A DNA stretch of 58,191 nt, the filler included, from Perkinsus olseni (taxonomy: Eukaryota), in the NCBI GenBank assembly GCA_013115125.1. It is 4 parts of 4 records of this genome, joined end to end, with 100 filler letters (N's around TTAATTAATTAA, not from the genome) between each part and the next. Parts side by side here need not be neighbours in the genome. Positions count along the whole stretch, not along the records: positions 1 to 14,516 come from JABANN010000728.1; 3 more parts are not named here. The stretch is one strand, 5' to 3'. The first letter of the stretch is position 1; each line of letters opens with the position of its first letter. The position numbers and the translations under genes are program-made. The notes beneath the pieces are model-generated. The model did no database searches, was not told the DNA's origin, and worked only from the letters and a program-made list of their open reading frames with translations. Below are positions 677 to 58,000 of the stretch, one piece after another.

Positions 677-2348
677 TCAAAATTTCTGAAAGAGGAGTTG
701 GTCTCTGTCGTTAATGCTAGGTGTTGAGCCTTCCGACGATTCAGGGTACCTATGATCATACCCCTCCTTTCGCAAATCACACAGCACACTGAGCTCACTT
801 GTCGAACATCGATGTATCGTCTTCTCCTCTGACTTTCGGTATGAAAGGTGGAGCCAACTGCCGCGCCAAGACCTGCTCCCACTCGGCTCCCTTGAACCTG
901 TGGTGAGATTGTCTTGGCGTCTGCTTTGTGCACTTCTGAAACTAATATCTTAGCTCAGCACGTGCTATCTCAAGCTACTAAACTCCGAGTTAGTGGCAAG
1001 GTCCGATTGAAGACTAATCATCCTCAATAACTTCGTGTGAGTTGAGTGGCGGTGATGAACAAGAAGATTCGCTACAAACCCAGTAATCGCGGCCGACTGT
1101 ACAGACAACGCACTCGAAAGATTCTCACCATTTGTGTTTCTTGATATCATCAGCCCCATTCTTAAGACAACCAAATCGTTTGGAACGGTCATGCGCCAGC
1201 AACCGCTTGATGAGGTCCTTCCCTTTCACGTCGAAGTGGCGCGGGAAATCTATCTTCCCCGCCAGGATCTGAGATTCTCAAATCCACACAATCGACACGC
1301 CTGGGCTGCCAACCTTCTGATAAATTCCGAAAGGATTCTCATGATAGAAGGGCGGATAACCCGCAAGCATCTCGAAGATGAGGACTCCGAGGGCCCACCA
1401 ATCGACCGACTTGCCATGGCCTGACGACATGGAAGAAGTCATCGGATATCTCCCCGAGCATCTCCACCTTTCGACTGGATAATTTCCGGTGCTAAGTACT
1501 CGGGAGTTCCACACAAAGTCCAGGTTCGATCTTCAACCACTTTCGCAAAACCAAAGTCGGTGACTTTGACGTGGCCTGACGAATGACGACCGGTCGATGG
1601 AAGTATCGCCGAGGTCCATTCTCTCACCAGTGGAATCAATCAACAGGTTCTCAGGTTTCAAATCTCTGTAGACGATGTTCATGTCTGAGGTAAGCCGAAG
1701 GTCCCAGGTTCGAACCCCGGGAAAGACATACCATGCAAATATTGAAACGCCAGGATGATCTCAGCCGCATAGAACTTCGCATGGTCGTTCGATAGCCGCC
1801 CTTCCTTGCGGAGATGAGAGAACAGCTCCCCTCCATTAACGTATTCCATCAACATGTACAAACGCTTGTCATCCTGGAACGCCGTGAGCCTGAAGTCAGG
1901 GTGCTAGCGGCGTATCTTAGGTTGACCCCTGCATCACTCGGAATAGCTTACAGGTTGACAATATAAGGGTGCTCGATCATAGACAGGATCATCTTCTCCG
2001 CTTTAACATGCTCAACCTGAGGATGGACGCTAAGTAAGACAATTTCGTGGCGCGTGACGCTTACTTGTTTCAATCGAATCACTTCTGATTTTTTGAGCAT
2101 CTTCAGAGCCATCGGTGAGCCATCGTCCGAGTCCTTCAACTTCACCACTCGAACTCTCCCAAACGTACCTGCAGTCGGCCACTTTCTGACACCTCTAGCT
2201 CCACAATAGCTACACCTCACCAGTCCCGACAGTATCGCGCAGCTCGAACGAATTCACACTGAGTGCTCTCCCTTCCAACAGGCCTTTGAAACGAGCTATA
2301 TGGCTCTGAGAAAAACGTCACTGCGCCACGAAATTATTTCACCTCCAT
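677..2348 (-). CDS. PKA-C: cAMP-dependent protein kinase catalytic subunit (AGC kinase), about 10 exons
   Basis: Spliced translation includes [77 protein letters not shown] and C-terminal PPFIPK..DTSMFD..FQKF*. All introns are GT-AG and keep the frame. Confidence 0.96.
1691..1728 (+). pseudogene. tRNA 3'-half fragment (variable loop, T-arm, acceptor strand) inside a 47-nt PKA intron, antisense to the mRNA
   Basis: taagccgaAGGTCccaGGTTCGAACcccgggaaagaca fills most of intron 1685-1731. Confidence 0.75.
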
Positions 2349-2909
2349 CTCACATTGTCAGTGAGCTGATCAGCCGTGGGAGAGTCGGCCAAGATGCTGC
2401 TACCTTTCACTGAAAATGAGCACAGCGAAATCGTTCAACAGAGAGACGCGACCACACACAGTCCACGCCGCGGAAATTCTTATCAATATGTAGGGGCGAG
2501 GCTTCTCAGGGGAAAATTTTCCAAAAAAAAATCATGCAAATTTTTCACAATCTCGCTGAAGAAAGATACTTTTACTGGATCTCTTCATTAGCGCATGGAA
2601 CTCTTAAGGCTCGTCACTTACACGAAGATCCTCCTCCGCCACTTTCAGTCGACTTAGACGATTTCTTGCTACTGCCGAACATTCACAAACGCAGCAAAGA
2701 CCCTACAATGACAGAGATGCTGAAAATTTACGCAATTTAAAATCAACATAAACGACTCGATCTCCATGAGGGACCGCGAGAAGAACTCGAAGCGCGATCT
2801 TAAAAACGTGCAAAGATTCCGCGCATTCGGCCGACTGAAGGTTGTCATTGACAACACTACCAGAAATGACGTTTGAGAAACGTTTCTCGCTCGGTTCAAG
2901 GAACAAAAA

Positions 2910-5482
2910 CTACTCAATGATCTTCAACGACTTTTCAAAACTCACAGAAGCAATCTTGTCATCTCTGAAAAAGCAACAATAACAGCCGCACCCTGGCGAT
3001 CGGAAAGACGAAGATCTTTCTGACACCTCTAGCTGTGAACTTACATCTTGGAGAAGCACATATGCCGAATCGCGCCTCGTTCATGTACTGGTATTGTCAT
3101 CACTTTTTGTTGAGAGAACGTCTCGAATACGGCAAGACTGCCAATGTATGATCCTGAGCAGGAGAATCTTAGGTTGATCCATGCGCTACGCGAGTAGCCA
3201 GGGAAGCAGACGAGGGACAGATCTTGGCAATAGTAATGACATGATGTTACTGACGTACCGCTCTTATCCGTAGTGGTGGAGAGGACGAAGCTTCTATCGG
3301 CCGACACGGCAAGGGAAGGGTTGTCGTACTCGTCGATATCGATTCCGTAGTATCTACAAGGAATTAAGTGGAGCTATTTTGTATCTTGCCCGCGCAACCT
3401 CAAGATATGGTTACGTTCGGATAGGGGAGTGATGGAAGGCTCGGAACAGCAGAAGCTTATGCGCATCAGTGGCACAGAGGATGAAGGTGTGACCGTCCAT
3501 CGACCACGACAACCTGATCACATGGAAGGTCGCGGGTTCGAACCCCAGTGCATGCATTTTACATGTCTCGAATCCTGAAGCTGACATGTCTATCCAACTT
3601 ATGAGGATTCAACGAGTAATCACCAATGTTCTTCAGCGTCTCGCCCGAGTAGTAATGCATGTACCTGGACAGGGCGCATGAGTTCCGAAAGGAGTGGTAT
3701 GCACGAATGCACACGACTTACGGATCATTCTCAATCGCCATAGCCAATACTGGCTCATCACACTCAAGCCACGTAGCGGCAGACACTGGTTGAGCTTGAC
3801 GGAATAACCCAGTCTTTCTCCATTCAAAATCTAAGCACGATGTAAGAAGCGCGCGCCATAGTGATCGATTTCTCTCACCTTGCGTTCCCTCAACACGTGT
3901 CCGTTCGTAAAACTGGACGGTCATGTCGCGACACGCACTGAACAAAAGTAGCTCTCCATCACCCCTAACTTGTGGGTAGAATTGGCAGCGCAGAACCTGA
4001 GAGCGTTGAGGAAATGCAAGATTGCAAGATATAAAAATCTCTCACGTGTGTTTTGGTAGGGTGGGATGACTTGCCAACTTCTTCACCCGTCGCAGCGTCG
4101 AACGCCAACTGAAATCGAGCGGAAATCAAAAAAGGGAAAACCCGCGAGCTCTGAGAGAAACACCGAACTCTCGATCAGCTGCAGGAGATTTACCGGAAGG
4201 AAACAAAAATTGATGGCGATAATGACGCAGTTGGATTCTCCCAGAGAAATCTATCTTCACTCATTAATCATCAATTCTTTCATCAATTCAGAACGATAAA
4301 GTTGGTATCGCTATCCCGGTATCCTCAGGCGATAAACATATTTTGAGGATGGTGATGACGATAAGATGAACGAAAGGTGAGCATGATGCTCATTAATACA
4401 TCTGTGTGTGATACGAAATCGGCATGATAAGGCGTAATGTCGTAATTAACACGGATTTACCCACTATATTATGCCATCGATATCTTAGGTCGAAGCTGAA
4501 CAAATGCAGAGATAAAGATACCTACAACTTCGCCACCCATACACCCAACAGCAATGAATGCACCATCTGGGCTCCAGTCGAGGGACAGTACAGGAGAGGG
4601 GGCGCGGAAGACGAGGCCAGTGGGTTCGATGCCGGCTGAACGAAAATGGATCTTCGAACGTCCAGAGGGACGCTGCATTGGTACCTTCACTGTCCCTCCA
4701 AAGTTTAACTTCTCTATCGGCACCCCCGGTGGCCAGCAACGTCGAGTCCGTTGGATGGAATACCACGCAGGTCGGGTTGGCTCTAGCACCATGTGGAGCT
4801 GTGGTCGAGCGGACTGAGGCAACACTCTCCATCCCCGACCTCTAAACCCGCGCAGGTTCCATCCCACCCTACCGACTGCATGTGGAGTTACTCCAGGCTC
4901 CTTCACGATGCCTTCCAACAGATCCTCCGGTCCTCCTTCCGACTCATCACTATCACCATTGGCCGCGTACTGAGCTGAATACCTGAGCTGGCAAGCATCT
5001 CCCAGGAGAGTGGCAACACGGCCGTCGTCCCCCAAGGCAACTCATTGGCCACCGAAAGACCCACACGAATAGCCCTCTCAGACAGGGGCCCTACTACTGG
5101 ATAATTACCCGCCTACTGCAACCAGGATGAACAGGGTGGTGGTGTCAGTATAACTCATACCACTCCAACCACTCCCAACTTACCACATATCGATGGCCCT
5201 ATCCAAAATGCTGCAGTCGCTGCTGCCTTCGGTGAACTTAATGCCAGATTCACGCTGCAGAGTAGAGAACGCCTCGAGGTACTCGTGCTCCAAAAGATAC
5301 CTAACAAGCTCAACCTCGTGAGAATCTTTGATTCTGTGTTCATCACGGATCAAGCTTGGATACTACTGCAAAATAGCCTGTAACTGCGCATGTTTGGGCT
5401 TCTGCAAAACACCGCTCTCGCTGGATGAGGGGATGGACGCGGCCGCGCCTTCAATGATGATCTCGGGCTTGATGGTGGTCAT
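2910..5482 (-). CDS. LisH-domain WD40-repeat protein, multi-exon
   Basis: Spliced LisH motif LQAILQYLLEHEYLEAFSTLQRESGI. WD blades: CVVFHPTDSTLLATGGADREVKLW, VLSLDWSPDGAFIAVGCMGGEV, LLFSACRDMTVQFY, LSWSMDGHTFILCATD, IASVSFEKSLKIIE*. Confidence 0.85.
3518..3560 (+). pseudogene. tRNA 3'-half fragment with TTTT tail inside a 49-nt WD40-gene intron, antisense to the mRNA
   Basis: tcacatggaAGGTCgcgGGTTCGAACcccagtgcatgcaTTTT fills intron 3514-3562. The flanking exons join in frame (RDM|LSWSMDG). Confidence 0.75.
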
Positions 5483-5635
5483 ATAGGGGAGTCGAACCTC
5501 GCCGTTGAGGAAATGCAAGATTGCAAGATTGCCCACAACCCAACACTTGGTCGTATGATGAACAACGTAGCATGAACATGGCGCCAAAAAATGAGCAACT
5601 AATCGGAACTCCCGAAAAGCAAGTCAGAAGACTTC

Positions 5636-5661
5636 AAAATACCCTCACCAGGGATTGAACC
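5636..5661 (-). pseudogene. tRNA T-loop/3' end fragment directly after the stop codon of the neighbouring gene
   Basis: Minus strand reads TAG-GTTCAATCCCTGGTGAGGGTA-TTTT. Confidence 0.5.
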
Positions 5662-7998
5662 TACGCGGCCTCCGCTCCTTCGGCTTCCTCCTGAGCTGCA
5701 GCAGCCGCTGCCCCTTCGCCATCCGCAGCGGGGGCCTCTTCAACAGCCTGAGAGACACCTTTCTCATCCATCTCTCAACGAGGTCCTGCCTACCTGCTCA
5801 GCTTCAGTCGGCTTCTCGTCGACAACCTCTGCAGCTTGCTCCTCGTTCTTGCTCTCTTGCGATTCCTCAACGGTGGCATCATTCACAGGCTCTTCAGACT
5901 GGCCTCCATCTTGCTCCTGGCCTTCCAACGCTGCATCTCCCTCATTCTTGCTCTCTTGCGATTCCTCAACGGCAGCTTCAGCTGCAGCCTCTTCCTTCTC
6001 ACCCACCCCAGCTTCCTCCTCCTCACCCTCCCCCGACTCCTCAGCCACCGGCTGCGCATCCCCAGAATCTTGTTCATTCTTGCAATCTTGCGATTCCTCA
6101 ACGGCAGCTCCAGCTCCCTCATCACCCCCCGAGTTCTCATACTCGTCATACAACTTGTGTAGCTCCTTCCCACGCAGGCCTTCTACCATATTCCCGCGCG
6201 CCTGTTCAAAATAAAATCGCCAAAAAACTACCACCCGCCGACCAGCATCACCTTCGTTTTGATAGCCTGTGTTTGATAATAGATTTTCTTCAACTCCTTC
6301 TCCGTAGTGCCGGGGAACTTAGACACATCATCGTGGAACAGAGCTTCGCAGATCTGCATGAAGGTGACCACGTCGATCGAGCTTTCTTGGCCCTGAGAGT
6401 AGAAGAAGATAAAGAGACAACACTCGGCGATTCGGGCAAAGAGTCGTATCCACCAAACACGATTTTCATATCATTACCGATTCAGACGGGCCTATCAATT
6501 CTGCGGGGACCCGCAGAGACGCCAATGCATGATTGATCACTGATGAATACGGAATGGCAACCACCTCCTCCAAAACCATACCACATTTCTCCTAATTCTT
6601 CGACACCAGTTGCACTTCTTTCATACTATCAAATGCGCTTAAAAACCAGAATCTCCTATCTTCATGGTCACCAATAAAGCTGCCTTTTCGGCCTACCCAC
6701 CCCGGCAACCGACCAGATCCGAAGTCGAAGGCAACATCATATCAACCGCGCGAGCTTCACCCCTCCCCTCTCTCGAAACACTAAAAGCCCTCCATGACGC
6801 CTGCCCAGCCTGCTAAGAATGGGTACTATGCATGTCGGCTATGATTGCAGGCTTCGAGACCATCTGAGCCCTCATTCGGCCATGTTACACAAAAACGGAG
6901 GCCACAATGTCTTCCATCACAACGCTTTCAGCTCTAACGACGTTTCGAATTCTACGCGAGGATCAGAGCAACTGCCACCCCAACCACTCAAACCTACTAC
7001 CGTTAGATATCTCACGAGTAATATTTTTTGGATTTCAGCGTGAGAAAATTCATAGGGGAACTCTAAAGCCCTCAGAAGCGTAATCGACCGATCGAATTTT
7101 CTTTTCCTGAATCTTGATTTCAGCTTCAGACTTCCCTCAGCTTACCACGTCCCGAGCGTCGCATAAGTATTGGATTTGAGCGTGAACCGGCTGCAACTTC
7201 CCTCCAGCGGTCGCCAACTCGGCCAGGATCCCCTTCACGTATCTTCAGCGGAGGGTAGTTGGTGCTCGGTGAGACGAAGTAACCCCACCTGACAGGCAGC
7301 TTCCCTCCTTCATCCCTGTTCTCCGCCTGGTCGAATTGAGCCGCATAGGTAGGATACTTCTCACGGTACCTTTCCAGTGGATGAAAATAACAATAACAAC
7401 TTTCCGTAAAATCGCTAAAGAATGATAGCCGAGCATGAGCAGCGAACGATGGCGCTGTGAACCAACCGATAAGAGTCAATCCCTACTCACCCTTCCTCGC
7501 CTAACTCCGCCGCTGCAGATGCTTGGCCGTCCGCCGCCGCTTCAGCGCCACTGCTGTTAGCTTCGACCTGAAAACAATATATATAACGAGAATCGAACCC
7601 ACGACCTCGGGATAGTAAACGTGAATTACTATCCGACTGAGCTAAGCCCACTAACATTTAAACGGTGTGGAAAGACGATACCCCACCTGAGTTTCCTCTC
7701 CTCCCGCCTTCTCCTAACAACAAAAGGAAATCCTCCCGCAGCCACGATACCCCCACAAACTACCTCAACATCCGAGTTCAACTGCGGGAGCTCTTCCTGC
7801 GTCTGCTGAGTAGGATCTTCACCGGCCTGTTCGGTCTGACCAACGGCAAGTCGCCCTGCAACTCACTGTAGTCCGACAGCCATCCACTTCTACCGTAATC
7901 GGTTTGGACTCTTCCACTGTTTCTTTAGCATCAGCTGTGTCCTTGGCAGCCACCACTGCATTAGAATTACCTTTAGCGGCAGAAGCCCCGCAGCCCAT
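5661..7998 (-). CDS. Hypothetical protein with N-terminal myristoylation/palmitoylation motif and acidic C-terminal repeats
   Basis: Starts MGCGASAAK; multi-exon; EF-hand-like segment SIDVVTFMQICEALF; three VEESQ(D/E)(C/S)KNE repeats in ORF 5764-6234; ends AEGAEAA*. Middle exons are less certain. Confidence 0.6.
7585..7649 (-). pseudogene. Decayed tRNA-like sequence in intron 7568-7686
   Basis: GGGCTTAGCTCAGTCGG (A box) ... GAGGTCGTGGGTTCGATTCTCG (B box). The anticodon arm is replaced by the hairpin GGATAGTAA-n7-TTACTATCC. Confidence 0.7.
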
Positions 7999-8007
7999 TA
8001 GAGTAAA

Positions 8008-8050
8008 GCAGTGCGGTAATACTGAGAAGAACCCGGGTTCGATTCCTGCC
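8008..8050 (+). pseudogene. tRNA-like fragment with B box just upstream of the MGCGAS start
   Basis: gaagaacccgGGTTCGATTCCtg. A similar cccgggttcgtttccg lies at 8210-8226. Confidence 0.5.
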
Positions 8051-8247
8051 CTTTGAACACCCACAAGAGTGGTCAGGTTTTATATCGGGCCAACGGTAAA
8101 GTCCCGCTCACCTACGTCCGACGACGAAGAGACTTCCGACGGAGACTCGGAAACCAAACAAAATAATCGATTGCAATGGCGAGCGCTTCTTGCAGCATCG
8201 TCAGCGCGCGCCCGGGTTCGTTTCCGTTTTGAAAGGCTGTCATATTC

Positions 8248-19717: not shown

Positions 19718-19776
19718 CCACGCCCTTTCGGACTGGCGCCTAAAGCCAGCGCCTTGGACCACTCAGCCAAACTGAC
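19718..19776 (-). pseudogene. tRNA-Leu(UAG), 3'-truncated
   Basis: GTCAGTTTGGCTGAGTGGTCCAAGGCG-CTGGC-TTTAGGC-GCCAG-TCCGAAAGGGCGTGG. The T-loop and acceptor 3' strand are missing. Confidence 0.85.
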
Positions 19777-19811
19777 GGTAGGTGCTGCAGTTTTTATAGC
19801 AGAGATATATT

Positions 19812-20516: not shown

Positions 20517-20638
20517 TGACAACTGTGGGGTTCGAACCCACGTCCTTTCGGACCGACAGTATGGCCGAGTGGTGCAAGGCGCTGGCTTCAGGCACTGGCG
20601 GCTAAAGCCAGCGACTTAGACCACTCAGCCAAACTGTC
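20517..20638 (-). pseudogene. tRNA-Leu(UAG) interrupted by an inverted 5' half of a tRNA-Leu(CAG)
   Basis: Minus-strand 5' part 20594-20638 and 3' part 20517-20553 join into a full Leu tRNA. The plus-strand insert GACAGTATGGCCGAGTGGTGCAAGGCGCTGGCTTCAGGC lies at 20555-20593. Confidence 0.85.
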
Positions 20639-21643: not shown

Positions 21644-21992
21644 CTACAGTGAAACGGTTAGATTATCTAACCGTTTCACTGTAGCCTAGCGCTAGTCGAT
21701 TATCTAACTTAGATTATCTAAGTTAGATATGCGAAACTGTGGGGGCGACCATCAAGCATATGATACTACGCTTAACCCATCTTGATATGCGTGACCGGTA
21801 CGAGGGTAATAATATCTGGTAATACCAGATATTATTACCCTCGTACCGGTCACGCATACCAGACTGGTATGCTTACGCTGACCGCAGGCTGCATTATCGT
21901 GGGTTCACAATGGCAATCCTAGAGAACCACAGCTAACCCGTTATTCTCAAGCCAGATATCCGTGATTTCAAATCACCAAATCACTGATTTGG
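21644..21992. repeat. Cluster of perfect palindromes with 1-nt centres
   Basis: Arms of 20 bp (21644-21684), 14 bp (21701-21729) and 36 bp (21786-21858), plus 7-9 bp ones at 21854-21872 and 21962-21992. Confidence 0.95.
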
Positions 21993-34885: not shown

Positions 34886-35917
34886 ATGGTCTCACGTTTT
34901 CGTCTCGGCTTCGGAGTAACCATGCTGGCCGTAGCAGCGGGCCTCTACTATAAATTTGGTTATCTTTTGAGTCTGCACTCTATTAAGGTTAATAGAGACT
35001 GGATAGCTGCTGAGGTAAGGGCTGAGTCGCTCGTTACTTCCTTCTATGGGCGGTCATCCCTCGCAGGTCGAGAGGAACTTTTGGCTGTCGGCATGTATTT
35101 ACATGCTTGCGATGTGCCTCGATATCGGTCTCACAATACCGGGAGCGACTACCCTGTCATTCGCGGGAGGGCTTTTCTTCGACCAGCCCTACGCGGCCAT
35201 ATTTTCTTACATGGGGTGGGTAACGAGGACGCTCCGCAGCACCAGCCTTTATGACCTTTCCGCTCCGTCAGGTATGTTATTGGAGCGTGCGTATCGTACT
35301 TGCTGGTCCGAACAGTACTCGCAGACTTCGCAAAGTGGCTATTGAATACGGAAAGTCGGTTGTACAAGAAGTTGGAGAGGAACTTGAAGAACAATGCATT
35401 CATCTATCTCATCGCTGCAAGATACACATTGGTCGGTCGTCGGACTCTATACGCGGGCAGCTCCGTGCACCTCGGCTTCCCTTTGTAGGTTTTCCCTTTC
35501 TGGTTCGTCAATGGTTGCGCGGCGTTAATTGGTGTGCCATTCACCACCTTTATGTCGGCCACCGCCGTTGCAGTGATACCGGGCTCTGTCCTCTACACTA
35601 CTGCTGGCCGCGCCATGACCAACGTTCTCGCCACTCTGGACCAGGACACGAAAGTCTCTGTGACTGATGTAAGAGAGCCTTCAAGCGATCGAGTCCTGAG
35701 ATGTACGGCTGCCCGATGTCTGCAGGTTCTGATACAATCGATGGGCTCGGACGACGTGAGAGCTTCTGCAATGTCCCTCGCTGTTTGCGGTATTATCCCT
35801 GTACTGATGAAAATACGAAGCCACCGGAAGAAGATGGCCAAGGCCCACAATGAGGCTGGTGGGCTTGGGAAGGCAGCGAGCGAGGAGACTTCTCAACAGC
35901 AGAAGAAAACTTCTTAG
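34886..35917 (+). CDS. VTT/DedA (SNARE-associated Golgi, TMEM41/TVP38-like) membrane protein
   Basis: TIPGATTLSFAGGLFF, IGACVSYLL, YLIAARYTL|VFPFWFVN..LIGVPFTTFMSATAVAVIPGS across GT-AG introns. Confidence 0.9.
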
Positions 35918-37289
35918 TGCTCGTTGGAATGCATTGTCGATAGTTGCCTTTTTTGCAAATGATGCCATTTTGTCGAACGCATGTGTTGTGTCGAGAGTTG
36001 TCCCCGTGCTGCTGGGGCGTGGGATACTGGAAATGGCGGGGATACAGTCAACCCCTGAACACTACTCTCTGTGCATGTCAGTTTATAGTCCAACGCCGTC
36101 GCCGGAATAGTTAGACTTGATGCCGATTTGCTAGCAACTTAACGATGAGCTCTGTGTTGCGTTATTCAGTTGGCTGCCCGAACGCTGCCTGGCAGCGAGC
36201 AGAAATTGCAAATCAGGCCATCTCAATCTCTTCTGGCAAAATCCACTCCTCACCTCGGGGCTGTGTCCAACTACCGAAATACTGGCACTGCCGCGGCTGA
36301 CCACACGAGTTTCATCTCCAGGATACGAGAATTCAATGACCCAGCTGCTCCTCACTGCTCACGTGTGCAGTCATTCCTCAGCTTCAGATTCAAGAAGGGA
36401 GCTCTCGTTCCCTAAGGCCTTAGCCTTGAATGCCATCGTTAGTTTTGTACAGGAGTCCGCAACCGCTGCTCATCGGCTCACACTTATTGTTAGCTGCCCA
36501 AAAGTACCACCAGCGTTCATAAACGGAGAACGTCGACGGTTCGATGTAAGAGGTCGAGAGATGGAATGTCCCATCTCCTACGCAGAGCAACCTACTTGAC
36601 CCTCGATCCAACGACATCCAGAGAGCTTTTGCCTTTAGTGTATGCGTGTTGGTGCCCAGCGAGGCTCAAGGCATGCATACTCTCTTTCAAGTCTTGCGTA
36701 CGTATGATTCGGCGATCTTTGAAATTGATGGACAAAGTGAGTTAGGGCGTAGACATTTGACGCTGTTCCTATCACAATTAGGTCTGTCTTATCTCTGGAG
36801 AATGTGAATGCTCCTGTTGATCGTACTCCAACCCTCAGAGCAAAGCTTGTATTGGGATTCTGCGCGGATGTTCGTGAATGTGTGCTGTGGCCTCGCAGAA
36901 TAGCGGTGGCACCGCCGCGGTGCTGCCGGCCTGTCGTTGGGGTCGTTAATAACGACTCGTGATCTCGGCTAACTCTGTGATCCTCTGATCATTCTCCCCT
37001 CTCATTGTCTTCTACGAAGACTCTTCTTCTTCTTCTTCTTCTCAATCTTGGACGCGGCACGGCCATTCTCTGGCCATTTGCCGCCAACATGATTCCTTTT
37101 GTAACCGCCCTTCTGTGGCTCGTCAGTCTCTTTTCCATTTCGTCCCGCAATTCATCCACACGGCCATTCAAGATGACTCATCCTCGCTGTTCGGCAGACG
37201 GCATCAGTCTCTGAAGACCCTTTCCGTCATTCGTAGAAACCCCTAAAGTACCATCGCCAGATCCCGGCTTCTAGTAACAGTGTCCCCTT

Positions 37290-39475: not shown

Positions 39476-40166
39476 CATTGTCACAAGTACTAGCTCAACT
39501 CAAGGCCCTTTGTAGTGTTCACCAGTGAGTACAGCCCCGCATCCCTTCCTGCGTATCAACACGAACCCCGCTACAAGCTGTCTACTTATTTCCGGTGTCA
39601 CGTTCCTACCTCGGCTGTATACAATCTTACTACCCGCCGCCCCCCTCCACACGAAGATCGATAACGCTGTGACCGTTTGTGACTGACATTTGTGACTGGT
39701 TGATGCGACTGTAACGCTTCAACCTCCCCTTCTGAGTCGTCTTCATGTAGCCACATCCTAGCCTGGGATTCCTAGGGTTACAGTGACGGAGCGAGCTCTC
39801 GCACTGGTAGACAGCAGCGTGTCTCTTCGCACTACAATTATTCAACTGATCCGCAGCTCGTTGCAGCGCTAGTAGCAGCTCTAGAAAGCAATGGCTTTGA
39901 ACGGCAAGATTCTCTTTCTCTTGAGGATAAATGTCCGGGCCGTAAAACCTTTCAGCCTATCAAACCTGAACACTATCACGCACGCAATCGTGTGAATAGA
40001 AGGCACATAGTGTGGCATAGGGATGGAGGCGATTCGCTATGGTTCCCGAAACCCTCAGGCCCTTCCCGTGTTGCTCAACAAATAGGGTGGAAATCACTAG
40101 CGGCAGCAGTTGGACCGGGCGTCTCGTTGCCGTTGAGTCTTACGACTCAGTTCTCTCAATAGTAAG

Positions 40167-40586
40167 ATGGTATTCCGTAACATCATTCGTGGTCTCTCTA
40201 TTGTGATCCTGGTGATTAGCTCTCCCCCGCCTCCTAGCGGACCCTTTTCTACGGTGATCGCTCAACACCCCTCATTCATCTGTGCGCAAGTCACTTGGAG
40301 TGAAGATCCGCATGAGGACGTCTCACTGGGTGTGAAGTGCGGTATCCCCGAGAGCGAGTCCGACTACTTGACTGTTGATAAGGTGGCACCCTCGGTCTAT
40401 AAGCTTGATGACGCTAGCCGCAATGAATACAATTTCTTCCGTAATTATGTGAATCAGCGATGCCAAGGATTGTTGGTTATGCAGGATGGCGACTTGGCTA
40501 CCTTCAACTACGATAGAACTAGCCAGTCCATGATGGTTCCGTTTGAAGGGGCCGAGCAAAATCTCTCAGCTGGAGCATGCTTCTGA
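40167..40586 (+). CDS. Small secreted Cys-containing protein of a lineage-specific family, intronless
   Basis: Signal-peptide-like N-terminus then PPPPSG; four Cys; 139 aa. A paralogous 5' end lies at 43517-43648. Confidence 0.7.
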   Translation: MVFRNIIRGLSIVILVISSPPPPSGPFSTVIAQHPSFICAQVTWSEDPHEDVSLGVKCGIPESESDYLTVDKVAPSVYKLDDASRNEYNFFRNYVNQRCQGLLVMQDGDLATFNYDRTSQSMMVPFEGAEQNLSAGACF

Positions 40587-41619: not shown

Positions 41620-41896
41620 CGACGTGAAAGCCTCTGCAATGTCCCTCGCTGTTTGCGATATCATCCCTGTACTGATGAGAATACGAAGCCACCGGAAGAA
41701 GATGGCCAAGGCCCACAATGAAGCTAATGGGGTTGGGAAGGCACAAAGCAAGGAGACTTCTCAGCAGCAGAAGAAAACTTCTTAGTGCTCGTAGCAATGC
41801 ATTGTCTATAGTTGCTTATTTTTGCTAATGATGCCATTTTGTCGAACGCAGGTATTGTGTCGAGAGTTGTCCCCGTGCTGTTGGAACGTGGGATAC
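41620..41896 (+). pseudogene. Diverged copy of the last exon and 3' flank of the VTT gene (35752-36028)
   Basis: Directly alignable, e.g. ctgcaatgtccctcgctgtttgcg..gaagatggccaaggcccacaatga..gagagttgtccccgtgctg. Confidence 0.9.
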
Positions 41897-43516
41897 CGGG
41901 TTCGGTCTACAGCCAACCTTCAATCACTTCATAACCCCCTGGAGAAAGCGATTGCTCCTCTCGATAGTACCCCAACGGTCGAGGCCAGTATTCAAAGCTT
42001 CTATGTTACCACCGAGCGTTGGACTCACGAACCGCGATAGGTGGTGATTCCGACTTGGAAGAACCGTGTTGTACATTTTTGCCGCCAGGTGCTACAATTC
42101 ACGCATCTGATGGCTGTTGATGATCTACAAATCGGAGCTTCACCCGCGATATGAAAAAGACTGGGGAAATACACATCTCAGATCGCGATTTTCTTTGGGA
42201 GAACGGCCCTTCACTTATTACGGGTGAAACTTCACTGATCCTGGTCCACTGTCCCCATGCCTCTTGCAGCTGACGGAATCACCGCAATGCAAAGTTATCA
42301 GAGTTGGTCGGTCAAGGCCCAGCATGAGGCTGGTGATCAGAGAGGCAACGAGCCAGAGGGATTCTCAGGGGAGAATCGAGAATACTCGAGATGCGTTATC
42401 GATGGTAATCTTGCATCATTGACAAGCAAGTTTGTCCAATGGCTGGGTTGTGCCGAGAAAATCTCGGCTCCGAGAGCTTGAGGATCATACTACAATCAAC
42501 AAGTTCACCAACCCTTGGCGAGCTGAACCGAGGACTCGTTCAACGAGTTGGGATCCCCGAAAGATGTTCTCCGGTGGGCGCGTCGAGTGAAGCACTGTAG
42601 TCGTGTCCCCAGTGACGCGGCCCCCTCCCTAGCTTCAATTGTATCTCGAAGCTATAAAGCTAGCAAGCATAGTGGCCGCTGAAGGAAACCCTCTGGGCCA
42701 CATGGGGTTCCTGCTCCCAATGTACACGCTCAACTCTGTTGCATACAGACGGAGCGACGTATCCGAGGTGTGCTCAAGCGTATGCGCAACAACTCGATAG
42801 TGAGATAGCCTTCAGATTAGGAAATTCACGAGGTTCGAGTTTAGGATTACCACAACCATCCGCAGGGAGGCCCCCGAATCCCTCTCGACCCCTGTCCTTT
42901 CCTCAATCTACCCGACTATCAGAGGAGAACGTCGGACCCAGTTGGCATCCCAATGAGCGATCTTATCGTCTCATAGGACCTGTCTCGCACCAACGATCCA
43001 GTACTCGAGTGTCATGAAGCTAGAAGAGCTCAGTCAGTCGGACGTAATCGGTTTGGGTGTCACCCGCGATCTGCCTACGTGTCTCCAGTGTCACGTTCCC
43101 ATTACCCGTGCATACGATCTCGATATCTGTGCCCCAGTCGCAGATCGATGCGCGCGACTGTGACGCTTCACTCCTCTCTCCTGAGTGTAGTCCCATCATA
43201 GTGTTTGTCATACAGTATTGGAGTAAAGGGCAACTGGTAGACAGCAGCCTGCCTCCGGCGCCACGACACTCTAGCTCTGCGATAGCCTGCTGCCGGGCTA
43301 TAAGGTCATGAGGGGCAAGTTCGTAAAACGGGAGAACGCTCGGGGCCACGAGACCTACGTCGCGCCGGACACTGGAGAGTGCACAACACCGACTCAGAGC
43401 ACTCCCTCGTAGGCGATCACATACGCTATGTGGCACAACATAATGAGGCATAGCTGTGAAGACGATCCGTGTCCGCTCCCGGAATCCTCTGGCCCCGAGT
43501 TGTGAGACTCAAGGAA

Positions 43517-43650
43517 TGGGGTGCACGTCACTCGTGGCGGCAGCCGTTCTGAGCGTGATGTTTCCGTCATCTTACAACCTTAGTTCTTTGAATGATATGA
43601 TGGTATTCCGTAACATCATTGGTGGTCTCCTTATTGTGATCTTGGTGGTC
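43517..43650 (+). pseudogene. Truncated paralogue of the secreted protein 5' end
   Basis: atggtattccgtaacatcatt.gtggtctc..tattgtgatc.tggtg is shared with 40167-40214, and the upstream flank is also similar. Confidence 0.7.
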
Positions 43651-50789: not shown

Positions 50790-52250
50790 TCACTTGACAT
50801 GAACAAAATCGTCAGCATCTTTAGCGTCGGCGGAGCGATGTCGTGTGGCGATATCTTTGTACGACGGACCATCACCGCTTGAGGCTGACACTGGGGACGC
50901 GGCTTCTCTTGGGACAAACTAAAGAGAACTTACATACACAATCGTCTCAGTAGGCATTCTTGAGACCATAGTTAGAGCAATAAATCCTCGGCGTCATCTC
51001 AACACTCTTGACACTTTCCATGGAGACTTCCCAGAACGATATACCAATTTTTTCATAAAACCTAGATGCTCTGAAGCATATAACACTTGAAATTTACTGA
51101 TGTAGGAAATATTGATAATACTGGAGATCGAGATTTTATTGACAATCTTTACCGGTGGACTTTCTATCCCGTGCAAAGAACATCGCAGCAGGAATCTTGG
51201 ACTCACCTCCCAATCTTCTTCGTCCCTCCTAAGAGCTGGGAACTTCTTCTGATACTCCTGCGCGGACATGGCAGGTCCGGAGTCCTCAGTGGTTGAATCC
51301 CTATCAGATCCTCCTCCCTCGCGACTTAGTTTCTGAACAACAATCTAGCATGAAGCCAGTGGACGGCCAGAGGCAGCCAGAATCGTGCATCTTGCTCTGG
51401 AGTGATTCATGAACGTGAAGCTTACCAAAAGCGCCTCGGCTGTGGCCTGCTTATCAAGGTTCGAACCGAGATACAAATCTTGTACTAACTCGGGGTCGAA
51501 ATTGGAGAACATATCTTTCAACTCGGCGAGATCCAACTCCAACCTGCTGCAACAGATAAGAAAGATGGTCTACATTGACCCTGCGGACTGACTTTGTCGC
51601 TGCTTTCTCCTGGTCCCGTTGGTCGCCCTCTTGTTGCGCCACTTCAATCTCAGCATCTTCATTTTGAAGGCCTTCGTACATCTTTTGCGACTCGGCAGCC
51701 AGGCGTCTGAATGCAAAAAAGTTGTGATATTCTGTATCTTGCAAGGCTGAACTCAAGATTCTTTTACCCATCGTTAGGACGATAATCTTCAACAACATCA
51801 GTGTAGTTCAGGCGAGGCCTCGCCGACTCCTTGCCTCGGCCCCTCCGCTTGTTACCTAGCAGAGAGAGGGGCAATACGATGCCATTTGGGGTATGCGAAT
51901 CGTCAACGAATAGCGTGTATTCCTATCAATGTCGATTTGACAGAACCTAAGACCATCGAGTACGAGGCTGATCCGGATGACGTAGATGCACTAGTCTGGT
52001 TGGAGCTAGTATTCCTGCACCTCGAAGTGACTCCCAGCGCGATGGTGCATCGACAAGAAGAAAATAATTCACCATCATTTCTACCACTACATACTAGTCT
52101 TCACTCAGTCAGTAAACGCTTATGTCCATCTTATGTCTTCACTCGACCCATTACGAGTCCAAGCATCCTCTTACTTTTCACTGGGCTTGAATCAACCTCC
52201 TTAGTATCTTCAGCCTCTTTAGAAGGAACCTCCTCAAAATCTGAATTCAT
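50790..52250 (-). CDS. CUE (ubiquitin-binding) domain protein, multi-exon
   Basis: DLAELKDMFSNFDPELVQDLYLGSNLDKQATAEALL; starts MNSDFEEV and ends DADDFVHVK*. Confidence 0.75.
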
Positions 52251-52339
52251 TTTGAATTAAATAACGCTTGTAACACTATTAAAGTGAAGCTAAACGTGGC
52301 AAGCCACTGTATCATCACTAGCGTCTCTAGTCTCTAGGG

Positions 52340-52374
52340 AAAGGTCCTAGGTTCGACTCCAGCACCCGGCATTT
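52340..52374 (+). pseudogene. tRNA 3'-half-like fragment between divergent gene starts
   Basis: aaAGGTCctaGGTTCGACTCCagcacccggcattt. Confidence 0.6.
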
Positions 52375-52423: not shown

Positions 52424-55400
52424 ATGTCCAGCATTCACGAAGCAGCTGCTGCTGGAGACCACCGTCGTATCATGAGGATGGTCTACTCGGGTGAGGAGCG
52501 ACCTTTGCATTTCTTATCACAGAAACTATATTTTTTTTTCATCTGGCGCCAACTGTTTACGGATTTTTCAAGAAAGCAATCCGATAGTAGCGACATGGGG
52601 GCGTTACAGCATAGGCCTGATTCGCTGGTGGATCATGCGATTGAAGACTGATTCGCAGATGCGGGATTGAAGGTCGAAATGCGTCGATTTCTTCTAGCTG
52701 GCAAGGGCGCGTAGAAACTGACTGCGGTTTGCGGCAAAATGTATGCATCTTGATGAATCACGCAATCTTACTAAGTGTGATTGAATTTTTGCTCATGAAA
52801 GCAAAGCTTTAAAATTGGCAGTAGGTGAGGGATCTCCGGATCGACTCACGGTCACTTGCTCGCCTTGAGTCGGATAACTGTGCGTCCTTCTGTGGAGGCC
52901 CTTCATGATATGACCGAAGGAATCTTTCTTTGATCTCGACCTGACCGACATTCAATCACCCTTCGATCAGGTATGGATGTCAACTCTGTTGACGAGTATG
53001 GACGGACGCCTCTGCACGTGGCTGTACAGGAAAAGCAATTGGACGCGGTAGTGCCGAGGCGGTTCGTCTTCTCAGGAATCTCTTGCGGTCTTCTTTCGAT
53101 GTGTTGCTGAATTTTCGGGAGATTTATGGTATTAGAATGTGAGCATTCCCGTTCTCCTATCAGGTGAAAGCTCTAGTGATGTGTCGAGCTCGGGCAGACA
53201 TAAAAGATTCTCTCGGGAAATCTTGTGACCGATTGGCGGAAGAAGTCTGGTTCGAATTGAGTTCTCAGGGTGAGTGCTGGTCCATCACGGACTTTCCTTA
53301 ATAGTCCTTTGCTGAGCTTTCTGCTATAGAGTTTCCCGAAAATCAGTGGATTGATTCAGCTGAGTATGTCGTCCTCTGTGCTGGGCGCGCGTCAACTTCC
53401 GCCAGGGAGCACCTGATTGAGGCTCTCGAGTGTTGATTGCGAATCTGTCATTTTCTCATGGGTTCCCATTGTTTCCTTTCTTTAATTGCAGTGATTACTC
53501 AGCTTCGCCGCGCTCATACGGTAGCAGTTCCGTTCGGTGCCGTTGCTGGAGGCATTTAGTGGTTGAAGAAGATTCGTTTCTGCGGGGATTGGTCGCTCTC
53601 AGGTTGCCCTGAGAAAAGCAAGCTCGGTGAAAAGATACGCTATTTTGTAGCGCTTTATCCTGGGGGGAAGAGAGTTGCGGACACGAGGAAGATCATGATT
53701 CAGAATCAACATCTACCGCGATTTCCTCCATTCCTTCCTGCTAGTGGCCCGGAGGGTGAGAATCTTGCGGCTGCGCGAAAGCGATAAAGAGAAAAAATGC
53801 TTGATATGAGGTTCGAGCCATGGGCCCTTTGGTTGCAGGTCAGCCGCTCATCCGGAAGGCCATAATCATCGGGCAAGCGCACTATGAAGCGAACGGGCAG
53901 AGCATCCATCACGCCTTGGCCGATTCCCAAATAGTTGCACATCGTCTGAGTCGTATAGGGTATGATGTCACTGTAGGTATCAATTTGGAGACAGAGGAAC
54001 TGCGGAGGTATCTTCGAACCCTATACAGAGCGTGAATCAACTTAAGATACGCCTTAGATGCCTGATGGATGGACTTGATGAGCTGGAGCCCGGCCCTCTT
54101 CGACTGGTTATATATTTCATCGGTATGGTCGAGAGGAGAACCGATGCGGCCGGACGGAGGGAATCTTTGCTGTGCGGCGTGAACCGTCGGTAGTACATCA
54201 ATGGCGAATACGGTTTGCGGCCGATCGTGATTGAGAGATAGCATCTCGAGTCCCCTTCCCGGTTGAGAGTGTTGACGCAAGAATATCTTCTTACTCGCCC
54301 AGCCCTCGGTGAACCTCGAAGATGCCTGAAGATTTCTGTTGCAGATTTTCGCCTGCCCGAATGCCCGAGGACCTCGCTCTTGAGGAGTTACTCAAAACTC
54401 TGGAAGGGAAAATGAAATTCGGTTCGACTGCTCTGATGGTTGTTGATGCCACCAGGTGCGTCACTGCGCCACGAAATTAGCGCCGTCGGAGGTAGAACTC
54501 TTTTAGATCTTTCTCGACCGTTCCGGGAGGGCTTGAGCGAGGATCTCCGTCGTGTGGCGTCGTTACACCACCGATGGTCACGCACAGCGAAGGATTCTTG
54601 GATGCCGAGCAGGCAGCATTGGCGACTGTGCTCGGGAGAATACCGTCATCATCAATGGGGCTGAGGTCATGGTACTGCGGGAAGAAGAAGATATGTTTTT
54701 GTCAGGCGCCACGAAATTATGTAAGGCTGGAGAGTTTCTCAATTTTCAGCGTCGGCATGAACCAGTTTTCTCCGGACCGCAGCTTCCCCTCGGACTTCTA
54801 CAGTGGGGCCTCTGTCCGATCCGATTTAGACTACGTGGCATCATGCGGGCCTTATCCTGCTGAGGTAATCGATCACCTGATCGATTTTATCTGGGAGTAT
54901 CTTTCTGTCAGGTTGGAAGAGGTATTTCTTTGCTGTGCGCGCATCTACCAAATAAACTACTACCTGCAGAATTTTTCGAGCCTTTGTCAATGATTTTCTC
55001 GGACGGTCAGTATTCCTATTTCGCAATTTTCCTTACTTTGCTGCATTCAGAGTCGACTACATCCCTTCTAGCTCCGGAAAAGGCTCAGATTGACCGAATG
55101 GTGGAGCTCTCAGGAATCACCAGGAATTGCTCCGTGAAGGTGATAACCCTTGGAAGTTTGTCGGTGTATTGTCTGAGTCTCTGGTGGCCACGAGCTTGCT
55201 GCTGCGGGGTGTTGCTCGTCACTGTCCTTCAACAAGTTATTACGTTATTTATCCCATTCTTGTGTGACGGTGGCTAAGCTCGGATATTCCTGCGGAGTTT
55301 GTGTAGTATCCAAGCTTGAGCTGTATCAAACCAGGGTGGGGTATCTTTGTGAATATCGTATCATATTGGGCTTTCAGTCGAGGGAAACGCTCAGGAAGCG

Positions 55401-57918: not shown

Positions 57919-58000
57919 CGACACCTGAGGGATTCGAACCCTCGCGGGCAGAGCCCAACGGCCTAGCAGGCCGCCGCCTTAACCACTCGGCCAAAGTGTC
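57919..58000 (-). tRNA. tRNA-Ser(GCU)
   Basis: GACACTT-TGGCCGAGTGGTTAAGGCG-GCGGC-CTGCTAG-GCCGT-long variable arm-GAGGGTTCGAATCCCTC-AGGTGTC-G; full cloverleaf, 82 nt. Confidence 0.95.

Follow-up and report, generated by a model that had tools for sequence, protein, structure and literature searches.

Fragments of tRNA pseudogenes and tRNA-derived repeats occur in the introns, untranslated regions and spacers of eukaryotes, and split and permuted tRNA genes, with tRNA halves encoded apart, are known in Nanoarchaeum and Cyanidioschyzon. As for newly gained introns, they include one derived from mitochondrial DNA and the intron gains of Daphnia, and introners have been found in Micromonas, Aureococcus and dinoflagellates. 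Perkinsus is a parasite of oysters and clams; perkinsids branch at the base of the dinoflagellates, a lineage with known cDNA recycling and introners. In the related parasite Amoebophrya, the introners are described as families of whole introns with inverted repeats of 8–20 nt at the intron ends and direct repeats of 3–5 nt at the borders (PMC7789003).

In the 58,191-nt stretch of Perkinsus olseni DNA analysed here (the window), two short minus-strand introns of neighbouring genes contain sequences similar to the 3' part of a tRNA in antisense orientation. The original prediction that both introns are real, and that each holds an antisense stretch covering the tRNA from about the anticodon loop through to the discriminator, was borne out, and the quoted sequences of both introns were found in the window as written; the accompanying interpretation by tRNA insertion is partly supported. 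A 47-nt GT-AG intron (1685–1731, minus strand) interrupts the gene for a PKA catalytic subunit after AFQYLH in phase 1. Because 47 nt is not divisible by 3, its removal is required for the frame, and the spliced product is equal in length to 7/7 fetched homologues, none of which has an insertion at the intron site. The RNA depth over 1502–1752 was 0 in the X7, X8 and X13 runs, so the PKA junction rests on frame and homology.

The proposed RNA-seq check was exact for the second intron, a 49-nt GT-AG intron (3514–3562, minus strand, phase 2) located between FRIRDM and LSWSMDG of a LisH/WD40 gene. Contigs of X7, X8 and X13 (RNA or RNA-like runs from three studies) skip 3512–3560, which with a +2 shift corresponds to 3514–3562, CT..AC on the plus strand, whereas the DNA run X9 retains the intron. 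Joining the 12 RNA-supported junctions of this gene, all of them CT..AC on the plus strand, yields a single open frame of ~440 aa, and RDM/LSWSMDG is read across the junction by the P. olseni protein model P0093 and the MMETSP transcript ORF P0092. Both introns have the GT...AG borders of U2-type introns.

The tRNA-like stretch of the PKA intron (1692–1728, plus strand) corresponds to tRNA positions ~37–73, occupies 37 of the 47 nt and consists of AAGCCGA, AGGTC, the T arm CCAGG-TTCGAAC-CCCGG, GAAAGAC and A. That of the WD40 intron (3525–3560, plus strand; 32–36 of the 49 nt) corresponds to tRNA positions ~42–73 in 3525–3556 and consists of GA, AGGTC, the T arm GCGGG-TTCGAAC-CCCAG, TGCATGC and A, followed, as predicted for one of the pieces, by TTTT (3557–3560). 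Both pieces thus have, on the plus strand, the variable loop AGGTC, a T arm with GGTTCGAACCC, a 7-nt acceptor strand and C72-A73, and they are identical at 20 of 22 positions over the variable-loop and T-arm core. Outside the core they differ, both in the acceptor-like strand (GAAAGAC-A in PKA versus TGCATGC-A in WD40) and on the anticodon-stem side (AAGCCGA versus ACATGGA).

Such motifs are enriched in the window 7- to 40-fold. With one mismatch or less, GGTTCGAACCC gave 10 matches versus 0.95 expected, a number reached in 0/100 shuffles; since the core is palindromic, these are five places on two strands. RGGTC-N4-GTTCRA was found 4 times (0.105 expected) and the B-box-like GGTTCRANYC 15 times (2.08 expected), and each of these counts was reached in 0/200 simulations. 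The B-box-like motifs, ~7-fold enriched, are located mostly in non-coding DNA. In addition, a degenerate 22-mer pattern built from both introns was scanned against prokaryote loci and matched at least 116 of them; 111 of the 118 listed matches fell within tRNA genes called by ARAGORN, with strand and place in agreement. Among the matches listed, the exact 22-mer of the WD40 intron is present in >100 prokaryote tRNA genes, and an identical 22-mer is carried by Gly, His, Asp and Val tRNA genes. AAGCC, the flank upstream of the PKA piece, which lay outside the search pattern, was the commonest flank of these listed tRNA matches (38/117). With C at its first degenerate place (the F1 spelling), the 22-mer was found in 0/118 of the prokaryote matches listed.

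Neither piece was called by ARAGORN at default thresholds or by the Rfam tRNA model, and no meaningful Rfam E-value was obtained for either. The PKA piece matched the Rfam model only as a cut stretch with truncated matches allowed (11.9 bits, E 3.2, model positions 38–71), and the WD40 piece had no match. The T stem is paired at 4/5 positions in the PKA piece (CCAGG/CCCGG) and at 3/5 in the WD40 piece (GCGGG/CCCAG), a five-pair stem being found in neither. Folding of the PKA intron gave z -1.55 versus shuffles, from the T-arm hairpin only, and that of the WD40 intron was no better than shuffles (z +0.16). A 5' tRNA half or A box is absent from both introns, and no complete cloverleaf was found at either, the DNA 5' of the fragments being coding exon. 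The lack of a significant Rfam score, the mismatched T stems and the missing 5' half therefore characterise the pieces as dead fragments. The match to tRNA is collinear through variable loop, T loop, acceptor strand and discriminator, with bit scores that are not significant. Judged by their sequence, the contents of both introns are tRNA-like and appear as tRNA-derived pseudogene fragments.

The original prediction also implied new introns made by insertion, and this is contradicted for PKA. The perkinsid-like protein P0003 reads YLHG-QSAIRSDIGSS-DLRIVYRDL, which fits an in-frame 36-nt intron of phase 1 ending TCA/G; P0096 breaks at YLHG; and P0008 has a long read-through insert at the PKA intron codon, where P0011 is spliced. 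A translation of the T loop is absent from the read-throughs of P0003, P0008 and P0096. This evidence, which consists of translated read-throughs of gene calls and not of DNA sequence, suggests that the intron position (phase 1, codon after YLH) recurs in the perkinsid-like P0003 and P0096 with unrelated content, and probably in P0008. Since the position appears to be shared with introns of unrelated sequence, the tRNA piece would have entered a pre-existing PKA intron. Moreover, two metagenome PKA genes, L155 and L184, have an intron just 5 nt from this position, which marks this part of the PKA gene as an old intron region. Both introns exist in the diverged DNA relative X9, where the PKA intron is ungapped and changed only at 1721 and 1722. 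The X9 difference table, which comprises the best-supported differences only, lists 2 changes in the 47-nt intron versus 34 in the 875 nt of the whole contig piece, and these counts give no sign of special constraint on the PKA intron. Inspection by eye, with no statistics, revealed a flanking duplication of only 4 nt, CATG, at the PKA site.

Several other tRNA-like loci were detected in the window. A near-full-length decayed tRNA-like sequence lies in sense orientation (7583–7652) in a 119-nt intron (7568–7686, minus strand) of the next gene (MGCGAS...). It has an A-box-like TAGCTCAGTCGG and a B-box-like GGTTCGATTC, and ARAGORN calls it as Val-CAC (7579–7660) only at 90% thresholds. The intron is implied by the protein model P0093 (EKAGGE.TQ/VEANSSG); 7489–7835 is unspliced in an X7 contig, and the intron is thus a prediction from the protein model. 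A T-arm-like fragment, CCGGG-TTCGATT-CCTGC (8030–8058, plus strand), is antisense to the minus-strand MGCGAS gene, 20–50 nt upstream of its ATG (7999), and a fragment similar to a tRNA 3' half only, AAAGGTC-CTAGG-TTCGACT-CCAGC-ACCCGGC-A-TTT (52338–52372, plus strand), lies between two plus-strand ORFs. A composite tRNA-Leu-like gene (20517–20638, minus strand) scores 36.9 bits with the Rfam tRNA model, the alignment having a long insert, and shows self-matches; a second 5' half of Leu type is copied in inverted orientation within its variable region. The sole intact tRNA gene of the window is a tRNA-Ser(GCT) (57919–58000, minus strand), found by ARAGORN at default settings and scoring 58.6 bits with Rfam. 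The TTTT after the WD40 piece had been taken to indicate a gene or pre-tRNA source; the run is present, but it is weak evidence, because this bona fide tRNA-Ser has no four-T run within ~70 nt downstream.

Compared with the known systems, the two pieces resemble tRNA pseudogene fragments as dead copies with a recognisable B box and broken stems, which occur in either orientation, but here the fragment makes up ~70% of a near-minimal 47–49-nt intron and represents the 3' part only. A tRNA-derived SINE was considered and rejected, as the pieces have no A box or 5' half, no body or tail, and end at the splice signals. The rearranged halves of the Leu-like composite at 20517–20638 resemble split and permuted tRNA genes, whereas each piece in the introns has a mismatched T stem and no partner half, leader or complementary joining sequence. 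Like the Amoebophrya introners described in PMC7789003, the locus shows repeated sequence within alveolate introns and raises the same question of mobile-element-like spread; the likeness here, however, is limited to a 22-nt core (20/22) with unrelated flanks, within 58 kb. Neither terminal inverted repeats nor target-site duplications were seen at the borders of the two introns. An introner family was also rejected, the PKA position being apparently old, common to P0003, P0096 and probably P0008, with no whole-intron likeness within the 58 kb. Intron gain through break-repair filler, as described in PMC3020277 and PMC3443670, likewise gives a short foreign fragment as the body of a spliceosomal intron, whereas at this locus the PKA position appears to predate the fragment and flanking repeats of the end-joining type were not seen. 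Extra-TFIIIC (ETC) sites are described as B boxes that lack a tRNA gene (PMC3395662). Both introns contain GGTTCGAACCC, a perfect match to the GGTTCGANTCC-like B-box consensus away from any functional tRNA gene; here, however, the surroundings are a decayed tRNA 3' part and not a bare B box.

Exact blocks are shared among other introns of the window. The sequence AGCTAGAGGTGTCAGAA(AG) is common to introns 2169–2220 (minus), 2965–3044 (minus) and 57060–57106 (plus), and GTCAC.GCGCCACGAAATT is found 4–6 nt from the GT in introns 2017–2064 (minus), 54456–54506 (plus) and 54695–54749 (plus), and inverted in intron 2306–2353 (minus). Introns 5301–5366 (minus) and 55303–55377 (plus) are identical in their first 17 nt, and intron 3997–4045 has 27/27 nt in common with 5503–5529. 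Arithmetic on the window size gives ~0.2 exact matches of at least 17 nt as the chance expectation. Orientation relative to host transcription is kept in most block copies. In addition, an X9 contig joins the PKA tRNA-like block (to 1717; the shorter side has 26 letters) directly to the block at 4003. The occurrence of exact 17–27-nt blocks in several local introns hints at a possible wider patchwork turnover. It bears on the claim that the two pieces derive from different tRNAs by independent events: their flanks differ as those of two tRNAs would, but short exact blocks are common to further introns nearby, which leaves independence insecure.

The reading that we prefer, with a probability of about one half, is that these are ordinary U2-type short introns, of older position in the PKA gene, in which an antisense dead tRNA fragment was inserted and then decayed and was trimmed. 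The PKA intron position would predate the tRNA sequence, and in PKA, at least, the intron would not owe its origin to the tRNA. A copy of a tRNA gene, or one derived from a pre-tRNA, would have been inserted into an existing intron antisense to the host gene. What would survive of it is the variable loop and T arm, flanked on one side by the 3' part of the anticodon arm and on the other by the 3' strand of the acceptor with some bases of trailer. Point mutations would then have disrupted the T stem, and deletions would have cut the intron back to ~47–50 nt, the usual local size, so that the remnant would form a ~30-nt spacer separating the 5' splice site from the region of the branch and 3' splice site. 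The near-full-length tRNA-like sequence of the 119-nt intron may show this decay at an earlier stage, and the fragments in untranslated and intergenic DNA the same debris at other places. Insertion followed by trimming, as well as the lack of a present function, is what we infer. The same orientation and near-same end points of the two fragments are not predicted by simple decay. The shared geometry pointed out in the original prediction is present in both introns but is partly forced by intron size and recognisability, because a 47–49-nt intron leaves ~30 nt of interior and a recognisable fragment must include the T arm.

Given the shared 17–27-nt blocks, the two pieces may instead be related through intron-to-intron copying, blocks of ~17–27 nt being passed between introns (by conversion, by templated repair in patches or as copies derived from introns) after a single entry of the tRNA-like 22-mer into the pool. 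The excess of exact blocks in unrelated introns over the ~0.2 expected, their mostly constant orientation relative to the host and the X9 contig linking the PKA and 4003 blocks speak for such copying. We nevertheless regard it as rather unlikely, since the tRNA-like blocks are 20/22 identical while the other blocks are exact, the PKA piece remains tRNA-like for 5 nt past the shared block and also has the T-stem partner G65 and C72-A73, and different tRNAs (Gly, His, Asp and Val) naturally have this core; the comparison, moreover, spans ~58 kb. In a third reading, the introns were created de novo: on two independent occasions, antisense tRNA gene or pre-tRNA sequence, from two different tRNAs, was inserted into an exon, perhaps as filler in double-strand-break repair, and happened to be spliceable. 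This would explain why most of each intron is fragment and why the pieces are unlike beyond the core that all tRNAs conserve, and the TTTT after the WD40-piece discriminator fits a gene or primary transcript. Gain by break repair is described as an accepted route (PMC3020277, PMC3443670), and relict spliced leaders in Perkinsus genes are described as evidence of cDNA recycling in the genus (PMC3101222). This origin is unlikely, however, in view of the PKA position common to perkinsid-like PKA genes with other intron content, the L155 and L184 introns 5 nt away, the presence of both introns in the diverged X9 and the lack, by eye, of flanking duplications beyond CATG.

The perfect T loops (11–12 nt) beside broken stems could reflect selection on the B box instead of neutral decay, the fragments being kept as putative extra-TFIIIC (ETC) sites, known in yeast (PMC3395662), or for a small tRNA-half-like RNA of the plus strand. 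The B-box match (GGTTCGAACCC) is perfect in both T loops, next to mismatched stems, B-box-like motifs are enriched and mostly non-coding, and X9 has no change in the PKA T arm among the best-supported differences of its table. But recognising decayed copies through this very motif can by itself yield two with an intact 11-nt stretch, and an A box and a Pol III start context are missing, which makes a working B box quite improbable. It is very unlikely that GC-rich short introns happen to hold the palindrome GGTTCGAACC by chance. Although the Rfam tRNA model found nothing significant and one GGTTCGAACC lies in a coding exon, the motif counts went unreached in all randomisations, the two introns agree at 20/22 positions, the exact 22-mer stands at the right place in >100 tRNA genes among the matches listed, and the AAGCC flank also agrees.

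If the preferred reading of an inserted and trimmed fragment is correct, a near-minimal intron needs little, and ~30 nt of dead tRNA gene suffices as a spacer between splice signals. Striking content would then be no guide to intron age, because the position here, in PKA, is older than its filling. A broader and tentative possibility is that the interiors of Perkinsus short introns are continually overwritten by copies of ~17–37 nt, so that positions are old and contents are young mosaics. The sources would include tRNA genes, coding repeats nearby and an RNA expressed at a very high level, copied perhaps by templated end joining or by template switching where there are palindromes like that of the T loop. 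Of such genome-wide patch copying, the two tRNA-half introns would be just the recognisable tip, and the inverted-half tRNA-Leu locus another product. If the shared blocks and scattered tRNA fragments hold, they would point to active rewriting of intron interiors in perkinsids.

The good tRNA genes of the window are of class II only, Ser and Leu-like, and no parent of either intron piece was found in the window. A sequence similar to the 5' two-thirds of tRNA-Leu(TAG) is located at 19721–19777 (minus strand) and ends within the T stem. Fragments of tRNA genes occur in the window at ~1 per 7–10 kb, and the coding-exon copy of GGTTCGAACC is located at 51458.

Two minus-strand genes occupy the initial 6 kb of the window, encoding the catalytic subunit of cAMP-dependent protein kinase (PKA) and a LisH/WD40 protein. 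The two sequences named as introns in the original prediction were found exactly at 1685–1731 (47 nt, PKA gene) and 3514–3562 (49 nt, WD40 gene), both with GT..AG ends on the minus strand. The exon at 1733–1888 showed the highest similarity with 'cAMP-dependent protein kinase catalytic subunit, putative [Perkinsus marinus]' (92% identity), and the E value was ≤1e-5 for 91 of the 110 candidates in the protein search. The P. olseni model P0093, which has a Pfam WD40 match, was 100% identical to the exon part of the query and, in a by-eye comparison, nearly identical to the window translations over its full length. Introns of the two genes are typically 45–62 nt long and end with (T)CAG. A simple intron predictor run over the whole window proposed 699 candidates, found only 8 of the 17 known introns and was dropped.

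The WD40 sequence is an intron: it is skipped by contigs of sequencing runs X7, X8 and X13 from three studies (X13 is RNA on record, X7 is RNA by guess, and X8 has no type on record) and retained in contigs of X9, a DNA run of a diverged relative. All 12 listed junctions of the WD40 gene have CT..AC ends, and joining them gives one open frame of ~440 residues. The junction reading RDM|LSWSMDG was found in both P0092, an ORF of an MMETSP transcript, and P0093. As for the PKA sequence, the region 1502–1752 had no RNA contig in four runs, so that its junction is neither supported nor opposed by RNA. Reading through the 47 nt, a length not divisible by three, shifts the frame; splicing in silico gives a 20-residue protein stretch across the junction. 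In all seven fetched PKA homologues, exactly three residues lead from YLH/YMH to [IV]xYRDL with no insertion. Frame, spliced translation and homologues support the assignment of the PKA sequence as a predicted intron. Both sequences classify as spliceosomal introns by their GT..AG ends; removal from RNA was observed for the WD40 intron.

In the plus-strand reading, the PKA intron is CTGAGGT-AAGCCGA-AGGTC-CCAGG-TTCGAAC-CCCGG-GAAAGAC-A-TAC and the WD40 intron is CTGATCACATG-GA-AGGTC-GCGGG-TTCGAAC-CCCAG-TGCATGC-A-TTTT-AC. In both, a tRNA-like variable loop and T arm are followed by a seven-base acceptor strand that ends in C72, then by A73 and a few trailer bases. Only the PKA intron also has the anticodon arm's 3' side, and the tRNA 5' half is absent from both. 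The T stem pairs at four of five positions in the PKA piece and at three of five in the WD40 piece. A degenerate 22-mer spanning both cores matched at least 116 prokaryote loci. Among the 118 matches listed, 111 were located inside same-strand tRNA genes called by ARAGORN and 7 in none (tRNA types: Gly 80, His 14, Asp 7, Val 6, single others). With the host genes on the minus strand and the pieces on the plus strand, the antisense tRNA-like 3' part proposed for both introns is borne out. At the first degenerate place, all 118 listed matches have the WD40 spelling and none the PKA spelling. AAGCC (5 nt before the PKA core, outside the search pattern) was the commonest upstream 5-mer (38/117 listed tRNA matches).

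Searching for GGTTCGAACCC with ≤1 mismatch revealed five places in the window, which count as 10 matches since the core is palindromic, against 0.95 matches expected; none of 100 shuffles reached 10. B-box-like motifs numbered 15 (simulated mean 2.08, maximum 8), and copies of the variable loop plus T loop numbered four (simulated mean 0.105, maximum 2); none of the 200 first-order Markov simulations equalled either count. Rfam covariance searches of the whole window (E ≤10) and of 141-nt stretches gave no tRNA match at either intron. With the stretch cut at the fragment start, the Rfam tRNA model scored the PKA piece at 11.9 bits (E 3.2, truncated mode only) and gave no tRNA match for the WD40 piece; Rfam scores are not usable as positive evidence for tRNA origin. 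We conclude from the sequence comparisons that both pieces are putative dead tRNA-gene fragments, neither tRNA genes nor chance resemblances; they were classified as tRNA-derived fragments and, within 58 kb, not as functional tRNA genes or tRNA-SINEs. The TTTT previously taken as a terminator pointing to a pre-tRNA or gene source is present in the WD40 piece; as a terminator relic it is weak, since the intact tRNA-Ser of the window has no four-T run within ~70 nt downstream.

ARAGORN at 85% thresholds with introns allowed made 64 calls in the window. A 94-nt 'tRNA-Arg' at 3463–3556, called at 90% thresholds, was rejected: its 5' half is coding exon, its acceptor pairs at 5/7 positions, and at 90% the program also makes overlapping calls at 36876–36979. 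A shared RNA hairpin behind the common geometry was likewise discarded (PKA fold z −1.55, 18/200 shuffles equally good; WD40 fold z +0.16, 102/200 equally good).

Other tRNA debris was detected in the window. At 7583–7652, motifs resembling an A box and a B box mark a tRNA-like sequence of nearly full length, which lies in sense within the 119-nt intron 7568–7686 of the next gene (the minus-strand MGCGAS gene); this intron is predicted from P0093, and the region is present unspliced in an X7 contig. A fragment with the tRNA 3' part only (52338–52372) is located between two plus-strand ORFs. A T-arm-like piece was found at 8030–8058, and more doubtful ones at 5648–5664 and 5485–5500. Antisense tRNA 3' parts were considered as ready-made branch/pyrimidine/AG modules. 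Such a module agrees with both introns and with the fragment that lies at 8036, upstream of the MGCGAS gene, but not with the fragment at 52342, which is in sense between two plus-strand ORFs, nor with the sense copy in intron 7568–7686; the proposal was dropped as not general. A truncated Leu(TAG)-like piece comprising the 5' two-thirds (19721–19777) has the same flank as a composite tRNA-Leu-like gene (20517–20638). The variable region of the latter includes a second Leu-type 5' half as an inverted copy, which makes a long hairpin. Repeated flanks near these loci are 19776–19800/20638–20662 and 20399–20440/20667–20708. By their appearance, tRNA genes were rearranged here through template switching or fold-back. 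The sole intact tRNA gene of the window is tRNA-Ser-GCT (57919–58000).

Judging from translations, the Perkinsus PKA intron position appears to be common to several related PKA genes, with a different filling among them. P0003, a public-assembly ORF call with 84% identity over the exon, reads FQYLHG-QSAIRSDIGSS-DLRIVYRDL and yields the normal YLH-DLR-IVYRDL only if a phase-1 intron of 36 nt, ending TCA|G, interrupts the codon that follows YLH. P0008, a partial P. olseni model of a paralogue, reads YMHS-KSGLEKG, then ~55 residues, then RNG-LDVVYRDL; the start of its insert, AGT AAG TC, agrees with A|GTAAGTC in phase 1, as read from the 5' end alone. P0011, a partial P. olseni model with flanks as in P0008, is spliced to YMHSLDVVYRDL. 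P0096 (78% identity) breaks at YLHG. A T-loop translation was sought in the read-through tails of P0003, P0008 and P0096, and none was found. The position is shared among related genes with differing fillings, so the intron would be older than its tRNA piece. The implied idea of a PKA intron newly made by insertion is contradicted by these translations, the same position occurring with other content in P0003, P0096 and probably P0008.

In metagenome PKA loci L155 and L184 and in ORF calls P0101, P0208 and P0128, the break lies five bases further, following the second codon in phase 0. L155 (2560–2650) and L184 (3430–3515) are unrelated metagenome PKA genes that form a near-intron pair with the Perkinsus site in a very conserved kinase segment. 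Twelve of the 20 ORF calls fetched were uninterrupted up to the YR/YRDL motif or the ORF end, and four break within one or two codons with the phase unclear. Among the 80 metagenome PKA loci, 77 were uninterrupted at the site, mostly short intronless transcript-like contigs; four (L185, L186, L188, L190) have clear introns elsewhere and none at the PKA site, and L191 has a frame change at residue 181. When protein representatives were searched with the read-through ORF, the best match ended by query residue 61 for 145 of the 150 proteins listed; the remaining five ended at 67 (P0008, P0171, P0185), 66 (P0160) and 63 (P0236). Intron-tail residues 68–74 were reached by none of the 150, and no orthologous intron translation was recovered. 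X9 differs from the window at 34/875 positions across the PKA region; its PKA intron has no gap and differs solely at 1721 and 1722, and the WD40 intron is also present.

The two tRNA-like cores are identical at 20 of 22 positions and their flanking sequences differ; the 22-mer core is common word for word to tRNAs of different amino acids. This pattern favours two putative source tRNAs. The original prediction of different tRNAs is favoured by the differing flanks and the shared core; that of independent events is less secure, being complicated by block sharing between introns. A 19-mer is common to 2169–2220 and 2965–3044; a 17-nt part reappears at 57060–57106, inside a GT..AG stretch of 47 nt. 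GTCAC.GCGCCACGAAATT occurs 4–6 nt from GT in 2017–2064, 54456–54506 and 54695–54749, and inverted in 2306–2353. The first 17 nt are identical in 5301–5366 and 55303–55377. A 27-mer of intron 3997–4045 recurs at 5503–5529, and an inverted copy (24/26 identical) lies at 6078–6103 in the coding repeat (VEESQDCKNE) of the neighbour gene. The chance expectation for matches of ≥17 nt, from the window size, is ~0.2. Most of the shared blocks point the same way with respect to transcription of the host gene, and sometimes their distance from GT is equal; the remainder of the introns is unrelated.

In an RNA-type X7 contig with a depth of ~2653, blocks 2182–2201 and 2316–2338 are only 22 nt apart; they are arranged likewise in X9 DNA (depth ~18). 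The X7 contig is an abundant RNA sharing sequence with several introns. In an X9 contig, the PKA tRNA-like block runs straight into the 27-mer block. Given these two pairings, the tRNA-like core could, on the evidence of 58 kb, be one more block passed between introns.

We consider it about an even chance (probability of roughly 0.5) that tRNA debris landed in existing introns, decayed and was then trimmed to spacer. Copies of tRNA genes or of primary transcripts would arrive in non-coding DNA, existing introns included, and die; deletions would shorten them until the intron regains its usual length, the leftover tRNA piece being intron spacer. The common orientation and end points of both pieces are only partly explained by debris and trimming. 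The similar end points are accounted for in part because a 47–49-nt intron has a free interior of ~30 nt, which must include the T arm for a fragment to be recognised.

Block copying from intron to intron is the strongest competitor, though unlikely: exact blocks of 17–27 nt are common to unrelated introns against ~0.2 expected, and the PKA block is linked straight to the 27-mer block in X9, but a core identical across tRNAs of different amino acids and the differing flanks of the two pieces speak against it. Somewhat less likely still is the birth of each intron from a captured tRNA fragment, given that the PKA position is shared with related genes whose introns differ in content. Retention of B-box function at the two putative sites is improbable, and a tRNA resemblance by chance is the most improbable reading, since no shuffle (0/100) or simulation (0/200) reached the observed motif counts.

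Ordinary tRNA pseudogene debris is among the nearest described systems to the intron pieces; filler-DNA intron gain, as described in PMC3020277 and PMC3443670, is another. A third is the introners of the related Amoebophrya, which, as presented in PMC7789003, have terminal inverted and direct repeats and form whole-intron families, in contrast to the Perkinsus introns. Within 58 kb, neither intron was found to belong to an introner family. Literature searches on Perkinsus introns and spliced leader, introners, the P. olseni genome and tRNA-derived intron gain brought up no paper about tRNA-derived or tRNA-filled perkinsid introns. In intron 3997–4045 (49 nt), the first seven nt, GTGAGAG, can pair with the last seven, CTCTCAG (fold z −2.2; 6/200 shuffles equally good). 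This pairing brings the splice sites together, as in Amoebophrya introners, and may be a mere consequence of the splice-site consensus.

Position 5499 is the spliced-leader acceptor of the WD40 gene: RNA contigs have a loose end here that gives, in gene-strand reading, CTTGGCTCA and then genomic AG. CTTGGCTCA agrees with PmaSL1, a Perkinsus spliced leader shown in PMC3101222, at its 3' end; the contigs thus end with the final bases of the L-type leader. The organism is accordingly a perkinsid, most likely P. olseni or a close relative. The acceptor AG sits within the T-loop-like GAGGTTCGACTCC. In the public P. olseni model FOZ60_005319 (P0093, 785 aa; window ~2900–8000), the MGCGAS, acidic-repeat and WD40 genes are fused. 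This is probably a mis-merge of three separate genes, because in the RNA data the WD40 gene begins with its own spliced-leader site.

Other repeats of the window include an array of 38-nt tandem repeats with internal inverted symmetry, broken by an N run (56343–56848), and a near-perfect 70-nt palindrome (21787–21857). Both came up solely through spurious microRNA-like Rfam matches. Local segmental duplication was observed between 35765–36011 and 41633–41880 and between 39803–40187 and 43233–43620, with identical blocks of 16–42 bases and copies ~5.9 kb and ~3.4 kb apart.
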